Of a stretch of 64,000 bases of DNA, positions 57,301 through 60,300 are shown one piece after another (positions within the stretch are counted from its first letter, which is position 1; the number at the start of each line of letters is the position of its first letter). A program made the position numbers. The stretch lies in assembly GCF_057098645.1 (NCBI RefSeq), contig NZ_CM169472.1, one strand, 5' to 3'.

Positions 57301-60300
57301 AAAAATGCCATAGTAGAAAAATCATGAGTAAAAAGTCTTTATTAATTATCATCTTATTGATTTTTATGTCTTGGTGTTTGTGATGATTGATTTTCACTAG
57401 AATCTCTTACTTTGATTAAGATTTTTATTTTTTCTTATATTTAACGTTATTCAATGCGCGTCCTGCTACGTTTTATCGTGATTTAGAATTGTATGTAGCA
57501 TTAGCCATAAAATGATATCACTGGGAATATAATAAGGGGAATTATAATTTTGGGGGATAATTAGGCACTATCAAAAATCGCTCATTCCAGACTTAAATAC
57601 ACGTTTTCTCCTGTTTAGGTTATGGGCGAAAAATTCGATGAGGAGACGAGGTATAATTTCATTCACAACCCTATCACTATCTATTAATAAGCAAAAAACA
57701 ACGTTCTTTTGTGATACGACTAACTGAAAATCCAACCCTTCGGGCACGCTGCAGCGAGTTTGTGGGCACTAACATTCGTACAAGCTTCATCTGCCGGGCG
57801 AAACGTCAGCTAAATACCTTAAAATAATCGCTTTTTTCTCCGGATTTGATCTCCTCATTTTTACATTCCAACATCATTTTATAAACATTCCGCTTGTATT
57901 TTTCTTTAGCGTAATGATAATCGCTATCACTGCGATTTACTTTTCTTTGCATAGATTGACTCAGAAAAACGTTTAAGGGTGGGTGGCATGTTTGTTCCGT
58001 TTCTCATTATGTTGCGCGAAGGACTTGAAGCCGCGCTGATTGTCAGTTTGATTGCCAGCTATCTTAAGCGTACCCAGCGAGGCCGATGGATTGGTGTGAT
58101 GTGGATTGGCGTGTTGCTTGCCGCTGCGTTGTGCCTGGGCTTGGGTATCTTCATTAACGAAACCACCGGCGAATTTCCGCAAAAAGAGCAGGAACTGTTT
58201 GAAGGTATCGTGGCGGTGATCGCCGTGGTGATCCTTACCTGTATGGTTTTCTGGATGCGCAAAGTGTCGCGCAACGTCAAAGTGCAACTGGAACAGGCAG
58301 TCGATAGCGCATTGCAGCGTGGAAATCATCATGGCTGGGCGCTGGTGATGATGGTCTTTTTTGCCGTTGCAAGGGAAGGCCTGGAGTCGGTATTTTTCCT
58401 GCTGGCGGCATTTCAACAAGATGTCGGGATTTGGCCGCCGCTGGGTGCAATGCTCGGTCTTGCTACTGCCGTGGTGCTCGGCTTCCTGCTCTACTGGGGC
58501 GGTATTCGCCTCAATCTTGGTGCATTTTTTAAATGGACCAGCCTGTTTATTCTCTTCGTCGCCGCAGGGCTGGCAGCTGGTGCCATTCGCGCATTTCATG
58601 AAGCCGGATTGTGGAACCACTTTCAGGAAATCGCCTTTGATATGAGCGCGGTGCTCTCAACTCACTCGCTGTTCGGCACGCTAATGGAAGGTATTTTTGG
58701 TTATCAGGAAGCGCCGAGCGTCAGCGAAGTCGCCGTCTGGTTTATTTATCTCATCCCGGCGCTGGTGGCGTTTGCTCTGCCACCACGTGCAGGGGCGACA
58801 GCGTCTCGCTCCGCGTAGCAAATACGACGCAAACTCTTGCTTAGTTACAACATACTTTAAATGGATAGTCTCGTCATGACCATTAACTTCCGCCGTAACG
58901 CATTGCAGTTGAGCGTGGCTGCGCTGTTCTCTTCTGCTTTTATGGCTAACGCCGCTGATATTCCGCAAGTCAAAGTGACCGTGACGGATAAACAGTGCGA
59001 ACCGATGACCATTACGGTTAACGCCGGGAAAACACAGTTCATTATTCAGAACCATAGCCAGAAGGCGCTGGAGTGGGAGATCCTCAAAGGCGTGATGGTG
59101 GTGGAAGAGCGGGAAAATATCGCCCCTGGTTTTAGCCAGAAAATGACGGCGAATTTACAGCCTGGCGAATACGATATGACCTGCGGTCTGCTGACTAACC
59201 CGAAAGGGAAGTTGATTGTCAAAGGTGAGGCAACGGCGGATGCGGCGCAAAGTGATGCGCTGTTAAGTCTTGGTGGTGCAATTACTGCATATAAAGCGTA
59301 TGTCATGGCGGAAACCACACAGCTGGTGACCGACACCAAAGCCTTTACCGACGCGATTAAAGCAGGCGATATCGAAAAAGCGAAAGCACTGTATGCGCCG
59401 ACGCGCCAGCACTATGAGCGCATTGAACCGATTGCTGAACTGTTCTCCGATCTGGATGGCAGCATTGACGCCCGTGAAGATGATTACGAGCAAAAAGCCG
59501 CTGATCCAAAATTCACCGGTTTCCACAGTCTGGAAAAAGCATTGTTTGGCGACAACACCACCAAAGGAATGGATCAGTACGCTGAGCAGCTTTATACCGA
59601 TGTGGTCGATTTACAAAAACGCATCAGTGAACTGGCTTTCCCACCTTCAAAAGTGGTTGGCGGTGCAGCCGGACTGATTGAGGAAGTGGCGGCCAGCAAA
59701 ATCAGCGGTGAAGAAGATCGCTACAGCCACACTGATCTGTGGGATTTCCAGGCTAACGTTGAAGGCTCGCAGAAAATTGTCGATCTGCTGCGTCCACAAC
59801 TGCAAAAAGCCAACCCGGAACTGCTGGCAAAAGTCGATGCCAACTTTAAAAAGGTCGATACCATTCTGGCGAAATACCGTACTAAAGACGGTTTTGAAAC
59901 CTACGACAAATTGACCGATGCCGACCGGAACGCGCTGAAAGGGCCGATTACTGCGCTGGCGGAAGATCTGGCGCAACTTCGCGGTGTGCTGGGACTGGAT
60001 TAAGCGTTATGCAGTATGAAGATGAAAACGGCGTGAATGAACCGTCACGCCGACGTTTACTGAAAGGGATTGGTGCACTGGCGCTGGCGGGAAGTTGTCC
60101 GGTCGCTCATGCACAAAAAACGCAAAGTGCACCGGGTACGCTTTCACCGGATGCACGCAATGAGAAACAGCCGTTTTATGGTGAGCATCAGGCAGGGATC
60201 CTGACGCCACAACAGGCCGCAATGATGCTGGTGGCGTTTGATGTGCTTGCCAGCGATAAAGCCGATCTTGAGCGGTTGTTTCGCTTGTTGACTCAGCGTT

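Follow-up and report, generated by a model that had tools for sequence, protein, structure and literature searches.

The stretch analysed here, 64,000 nucleotides of contig NZ_CM169472.1 (NCBI RefSeq assembly GCF_057098645.1) and hereafter called the window, contains efeU, efeO and efeB. We identified this region, with very little doubt, as the usual chromosomal copy of the efeUOB (ycdNOB) operon in an Escherichia coli other than K-12 and closest to O145:H28 Shiga toxin-producing E. coli (STEC). Near-normal EfeUOB function in this strain is probable, as judged from the sequence; the identification and this functional reading, taken as a whole, are held with high confidence. All three genes are intact. 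Three rare derived changes, namely EfeU W85C, a G>T in the Shine-Dalgarno (SD) element of efeO and EfeO R218S, weaken the functional inference and do not overturn it. The genes are as follows.

57988–58818, + strand: efeU, FTR1/OFeT-family iron permease, 276 aa, intact, with W85C (Pfam FTR1, NCBIfam EfeU)
58876–60003, + strand: efeO, periplasmic cupredoxin plus M75/imelysin protein, 375 aa, intact, with R218S (Pfam, NCBIfam EfeO)
60009–61280, + strand: efeB, Tat-exported DyP-type haem peroxidase/deferrochelatase, 423 aa, intact (Pfam, TIGR01412)

Gene integrity, the K-12 lesion and upstream sequence

The efeU coding sequence, stop codon included, runs from an ATG at 57988 to a TAG ending at 58818. 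Its 276 codons contain no internal stop, in agreement with a preliminary description of this DNA that had reported a continuous frame. A GTG three codons upstream of the ATG gives a 279-aa open reading frame (ORF) in a mechanical ORF list; the start annotated in related genomes is the ATG and not this GTG. EfeU matched Pfam FTR1 (PF03239) over its full length with 296.3 bits (cut-off 25.3), and it scored above the cut-offs of the NCBIfam equivalog NF041756 (328.7 versus 255 bits) and of TIGR00145 (347.6 versus 303.8 bits). Kyte-Doolittle analysis with a 19-aa window, a crude method, gave seven hydrophobic segments. Both RExxE motifs named in the preliminary description are present as REGLE, at residues 10–14 and 129–133. 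We aligned EfeU with 105 diverse EfeU/FTR1 homologues drawn from a library of 1.8 billion proteins; the R, E, G and E positions were near-invariant in either motif, and the alignment revealed no inactivating substitution in either motif of the window protein. A PDB sequence search with EfeU returned no solved relative at E ≤ 1. Many of the distant homologues (proteins P0005–P0121) are 450–700 aa long, with the permease domain in residues 1–270 and a large C-terminal extension after it.

The two downstream genes, which had also been described as intact, have no internal stops. EfeO consists of two domains, Cupredoxin_1 (PF13473) and Peptidase_M75 (PF09375), and exceeded the cut-off of the NCBIfam equivalog NF041757 (476.5 versus 270 bits). 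It matched the E. coli EfeO of PDB 7WGU at E = 2.7e-229 and differs from it at two residues, 29 and 218, over aligned residues 27–375 (the PDB construct begins at residue 27). EfeB contains Dyp_perox_N (PF04261) and Dyp_perox_C (PF20628) and reached 618.6 bits with TIGR01412 (cut-off 428); its Tat motif SRRRLLK and the haem-site residues D235, H329 and R347 are all present. The three genes are contiguous on the + strand, with gaps of 57 nt and 5 nt, and they lie between putP and phoH with the flanks of other E. coli (putA and putP upstream, phoH and pgaDC downstream). The whole operon was found at ≥95% identity in 5,416 of 5,426 complete E. coli genomes.

The preliminary description had also stated that the K-12 copy of efeU is frameshifted, and direct alignment to b4490 bore this out. 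In K-12 MG1655 (NC_000913.3) the gene is annotated as a pseudogene and measures 830 bp, versus 831 bp in the window. One G is missing at the following site.

58092–58093, + strand: GG dinucleotide, one G of which is lost in K-12 (pairwise alignment to K-12)

The window reads ATTGGTGTG here and K-12 reads ATTGTGTGA. The window codons ATT GGT GTG ATG correspond to ATT GTG TGA in K-12 (I35-V36-stop); the loss of a single G thus stops the frame at codon 37 and leaves the remainder of the protein in another frame. The K-12 pseudogene is otherwise the same gene at the same position, and the 14 other in-gene differences from the window are all synonymous except W85C. The exact K-12 deletion allele, surveyed as a 61-mer across the site, occurred in 368 of 5,379 complete E. 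coli genomes, and the sampled examples were K-12 laboratory derivatives. About 93% of the complete genomes are without it, and the window version of the 61-mer was found unchanged in 3,637 genomes. Because only these 368 genomes carry the deletion allele, an intact efeU is the species norm; it is ordinary, not distinctive. Neither point is new, since the lesion in K-12 and the functional system of O157:H7 were published in 2006–2007. As cited in passages of PMC3577903, PMC7549933 and PMC9174327, efeU is mutated in K-12, and EfeUOB of O157:H7, which has a complete efeU, is a functional low-pH ferrous iron transporter (Grosse et al., 2006; Cao et al., 2007).

Two candidate regulatory sites were located upstream of efeU, within the 134 bp 5' of the ATG that are common to K-12 and O157:H7 with few differences.

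57910–57928, + strand: Fur-box-like candidate site 5' of efeU, CGTAATGATAATCGCTATC (15/19 match to the 19-bp Fur consensus)
57936–57950, − strand: CpxR-box-like direct repeat GCAAAGAAAAGTAAA (one mismatch to GTAAA-N5-GTAAA)

The first agrees with the Fur box of the preliminary description. Its match is to the consensus GATAATGATAATCATTATC, it is the joint best Fur-consensus match within the window, and it is identical in the window, K-12 and O157:H7. The CpxR-like repeat is a weak pattern match and only a lead, because matches of this one-mismatch quality number 7 in the window versus 3.0 expected by chance. The title of Cao et al. (2007) is our source for regulation of efeUOB by CpxAR. A sigma-70 consensus promoter scan found none adjacent to efeU at its thresholds; by eye only, a weak TTGTAT-16-GATAAT overlaps the Fur box.

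Gene integrity, family membership, conserved motifs, the nature of the lesion in K-12 and conservation of the promoter-proximal sequence are thus direct observations. Expression and iron transport in this strain we infer, along the following lines. Iron limitation would relieve Fur repression, and low pH would favour efeUOB expression. EfeO would be exported via Sec, and EfeB would be exported folded with its haem via twin-arginine translocation (Tat). In the periplasm, the two proteins would handle Fe2+/Fe3+ at the metal sites of EfeO, which is expected to bind metal at its HxxE/GEEDRY site. EfeU, a predicted permease with seven transmembrane (TM) segments, would move iron over the inner membrane by the glutamates of its REGLE motifs, which lie in TM1 and TM4 and are thought to line the iron path. 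Together, the three proteins would import ferrous iron at low pH, with control by Fur and probably by CpxAR, as experiments have demonstrated for O157:H7. The metal handling by EfeO/EfeB and the REGLE-based transport follow the scheme outlined in passages of PMC9174327; the relevant part of PMC3577903 adds that O157:H7 EfeUOB also lets iron be extracted from haem in the periplasm.

Three rare derived changes and their bearing on function

Comparison with related genomes and strains located three changes in efeU and efeO.

58242, + strand: G>T, TGG>TGT, EfeU W85C, in predicted TM3 (comparison with related genomes)
58862, + strand: G>T, efeO Shine-Dalgarno AAGGGA>AATGGA, with a new in-frame ATG at 58861–58863 (strain comparison)
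59527, + strand: C>A, CGT>AGT, EfeO R218S, GFHRLE>GFHSLE (HRLE>HSLE, HxxE motif) (comparison with related genomes)

The complete genomes nearest to the window are O145:H28 STEC (e.g. RM12581 and RM9872), with 4 mismatches in 3.5 kb. Over window positions 6315–64000, 20 substitutions and no gaps separate the window from RM9872 in 57.7 kb, about one single-nucleotide polymorphism (SNP) per 3 kb. The derived alleles at 58242, 58862 and 59527 are all absent from O145:H28, UTME-3, O157:H7 and K-12. Contigs of the window's own lineage were recovered by exact protein look-up. The six closest public contigs differ from the window by 0–2 bases over efeUOB, apart from T at 58862, which none of them has; one (L008) carries R218S only, and five (L009–L012 and L015) carry R218S plus W85C. 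On this basis, the lineage gained R218S first, then W85C and then the SD change, which to date only the window carries among these lineage contigs.

W85C is the sole residue difference from EfeU WP_000497942.1, the protein common to O157:H7 and O145:H28. The exact W85C protein, of the WP_085459495.1 type, was found on 211 public contigs, which rules out a sequencing error. At least three efeU haplotypes carry W85C (the window; loci L013, L014 and L003), and they differ from one another at 14–22 sites. Besides that of the window there are two such haplotypes, which lie 16 and 22 sites away from it and are accompanied by intact efeO and efeB. Since W85C stands on the window background and on these two others, it has originated or been acquired by transfer on no fewer than three occasions, either by homoplasy or by short-tract recombination. 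In the alignment of 105 homologues, the column of residue 85 contained Y35, W31, G13, S9, T7 and F5, unlike its neighbours T84, M86, W89 and M90, which were nearly invariant. Given this variability within the family, and recurrence of the change on three or more backgrounds whose operons are intact, W85C is probably tolerated. Recurrence of the same TGG>TGT on mutually different haplotypes could also point to an adaptive, recurrently selected change in EfeU specificity or activity instead of a neutral polymorphism. We regard this as very unlikely: short-tract recombination or a mutational hotspot explains the recurrence equally well, many residues are tolerated at the site in homologues, and the change is rare overall, its 61-mer being identical in one of 5,393 complete genomes.

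That one genome belongs to the clinical isolate 2018-166 (NZ_CP075632.1), whose efeO is split by IS1A (L003, 4665–6569). The insertion inactivates efeUOB and is an event separate from the frameshift of K-12. A tie between W85C and operon decay was ruled out by other W85C contigs with intact efeO and efeB. The 2018-166 efeU haplotype also exists without the insertion sequence (L013), and W85C and the IS1 insertion are therefore not linked.

R218S lies within the metal-site motif of EfeO. The exact R218S protein was found on 36 public contigs, so that sequencing error was ruled out here as well; the identical 61-mer occurred in none of 3,873 matching genomes. In the GFHSLE at residues 215–220, the G, H and E of GxHxxE are kept, and S replaces the usual R at the first x. 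The sequence GFHRLE was found in 118 of 120 EfeO clusters, and HRLE or HRIE in PDB 7WGU (E. coli EfeO), 7Q1G (Pseudomonas syringae EfeM) and 3AT7 (Algp7). According to passages of PMC9174327 and PMC3143127, the His and Glu of the M75/imelysin GxHxxE form, with the GEEDRY loop, the proposed metal site III. EfeO H217, E220 and GEEDRY (residue 278) are intact in the window; R218S thus falls at a conserved but, by prediction, non-ligand position.

The third change lies 14 nt upstream of the efeO start and alters the sole SD-like element there. K-12, O157, O145 and 2018-166 all have G at 58862. An identical 61-mer was found in a single one of 5,417 genomes, an unrelated complete O121:H19 genome. 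The G>T creates an in-frame ATG 15 nt upstream of the efeO start, which accounts for a 380-aa ORF from 58861 in the ORF list. Some reduction of EfeO translation, or a shift of its start, is to be expected. Alternatively, a sequencing or assembly error might account for at least one of the three changes, above all for the G>T private to the window, in which case the operon would simply be the lineage allele. T at 58862 is indeed absent from all six closest public contigs, and all three changes are G:C>T:A transversions, a class typical of oxidative-damage artefacts. However, W85C and R218S are certainly real, given the 211 and 36 independent contigs that carry them, and the same 58862 G>T was found independently in the complete O121:H19 genome. 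An error is therefore an unlikely explanation.

Several observations weigh against near-normal function. W85 is essentially fixed within E. coli in the 61-mer survey, and R218 belongs to the conserved GFHRLE and is retained in every homologue examined down to roughly 50–60% identity. The 58862 G>T abolishes the sole purine-rich match 5' of the efeO start codon. Of the 5,417 genomes, all but one have G there, and the duplex with the anti-SD at the 16S 3' end is predicted to be less stable, at −3.1 instead of −5.1 kcal/mol. The operon might then be intact on paper and impaired in function, with the SD change lowering EfeO, R218S perturbing the HxxE metal site, or both, and with uptake reduced or lost. 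Such impairment is possible, though we think it doubtful; that it would represent an early stage of decay like the K-12 frameshift and the 2018-166 IS1 insertion is put forward equally tentatively. In its favour, the changes are rare or absent elsewhere (1/5,393, 1/5,417 and 0/3,873 genomes) and were gained stepwise in one lineage, the SD duplex is weaker by 2 kcal/mol, R218 is conserved in the 118 clusters and in the three PDB homologues, and independent efeUOB lesions exist in the 368 genomes with the K-12 deletion and in efeO of 2018-166. Three of 19 lineage SNPs also fall inside the 2-kb efeU–efeO span (binomial P = 0.027, targeted and post hoc).

Other evidence speaks against impairment. 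None of the three changes affects the ligands H217 and E220, GEEDRY or either REGLE motif. Residue 85 is variable within the family, and dozens to hundreds of assemblies retain R218S and W85C. As a scan statistic, the clustering of the three efeU–efeO SNPs was not significant (P = 0.65), and SNP clustering was dropped as a sign of targeted decay for this reason. Across the window, 11 of 14 coding substitutions relative to RM9872 are nonsynonymous, a ratio near the no-selection expectation. Lineage substitutions are mostly nonsynonymous throughout the window, as for young mutations, indicating that efeUO is not unusual in this respect.

Near-normal function is thus likely but not assured. The preliminary description had predicted a functional efeUOB from its intact genes; its structural claims all hold, whereas the step from intact to working passed over W85C, the 58862 G>T and R218S, and "intact, therefore working" overstates the evidence. 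The methodological lesson is that function cannot be read off an intact frame and intact motifs: comparison with the population revealed three rare derived changes, one of them in a ribosome-binding site, to which a motif check is blind. If these changes do impair the system, they would add one more independent loss of efeUOB and would be modestly informative on the dispensability of low-pH ferrous iron uptake in some niches. A broader reading, in which efeUOB is under recurrent lineage-specific erosion or remodelling, would join the K-12 frameshift, the 2018-166 IS1 insertion and the stepwise changes seen here with a W85C of at least three independent origins, hinting at selection on the permease instead of neutral drift; we consider it quite unlikely.

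Neighbouring segments of the window

Upstream of the operon, 2.5 kb at 55315–57853 stand in place of 406 bp of the K-12 putP–efeU spacer, and O157:H7 and O145:H28 have the same arrangement. This segment contains a 447-aa ORF (55462–56805, − strand) that is annotated as hypothetical in O145:H28 and O157:H7. Its protein had no match in Pfam, NCBIfam or PDB. By eye, the C-terminal half consists of three tandem repeats of ~60 aa (e.g. ...W-A-x-M/L...A-R-N/S-Y-L-K/T...G), and the polar N-terminus has a high content of Ser, Thr and Pro. A lineage SNP, G346R, is present in the window copy. Downstream of the operon, the efeB–phoH spacer (window 61305–61322) is ~80 bases longer in K-12, with an alignment break at L001 7690/7773. 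The start of phoH is annotated differently, giving 354 aa in K-12 versus 262 aa in RefSeq STEC genomes.

The nonsynonymous differences from RM9872 include hyaE G109C, gfcE S32R, gfcC P61L, cbpM R91H, rutF N54S, rutB E215K and pgaC V382M, besides EfeU W85C, EfeO R218S and the G346R of the 447-aa ORF. Four of the changes relative to RM9872 are G:C>T:A transversions, including all three in efeUO. At 25385–25554, in the gfcA–cspH intergenic region, four substitutions lie within 170 bp, which suggests a short recombined patch or a hypervariable site. In RM9872, the nearest genome, rutA (~47364–48454, − strand) is annotated as frameshifted; the stretch aligns to RM9872 without difference or gap, so the window should carry the same lesion. 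The first part of the window (1–6314) is a prophage end with tail genes, together with tccP2 and an espV remnant beside a tRNA-Ser. It aligns to RM9872 only in shifted, repeated pieces, indicating a different number of tccP2 proline-rich repeats.

Comparison with known efeUOB and FTR1 systems

The closest described counterparts are those of O145:H28 and O157:H7. The O145:H28 operon encodes EfeU WP_000497942.1, EfeO WP_000154383.1 and EfeB WP_001199141.1. Its efeB is nucleotide-identical to that of the window. At 58242, 58862 and 59527 the alleles of O145 are ancestral (G, G and C) and those of the window derived. EfeUOB (YcdNOB) of O157:H7 shares with the window its locus and gene order (putP, the 447-aa hypothetical gene, efeUOB, phoH), the promoter-proximal sequence and the Fur box, and nucleotide identity is about 98%. 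The O157:H7 EfeU is identical to that of the window except at residue 85. EfeO differs by V29I, R218S and D237E, EfeB differs at 4 residues, and the efeO SD element differs by the G>T.

In a wider comparison, passages of PMC9174327 describe yeast Ftr1p/Fet3p and other OFeT systems (FetMP, cFtr1-P19, FtrABCD and Bacillus subtilis EfeUOB) as combining an FTR1 permease, with paired REXXE motifs, and a periplasmic or extracellular partner that binds or oxidises metal. The partners in the window are EfeO, a cupredoxin plus M75 protein, and a DyP peroxidase, not a multicopper oxidase.

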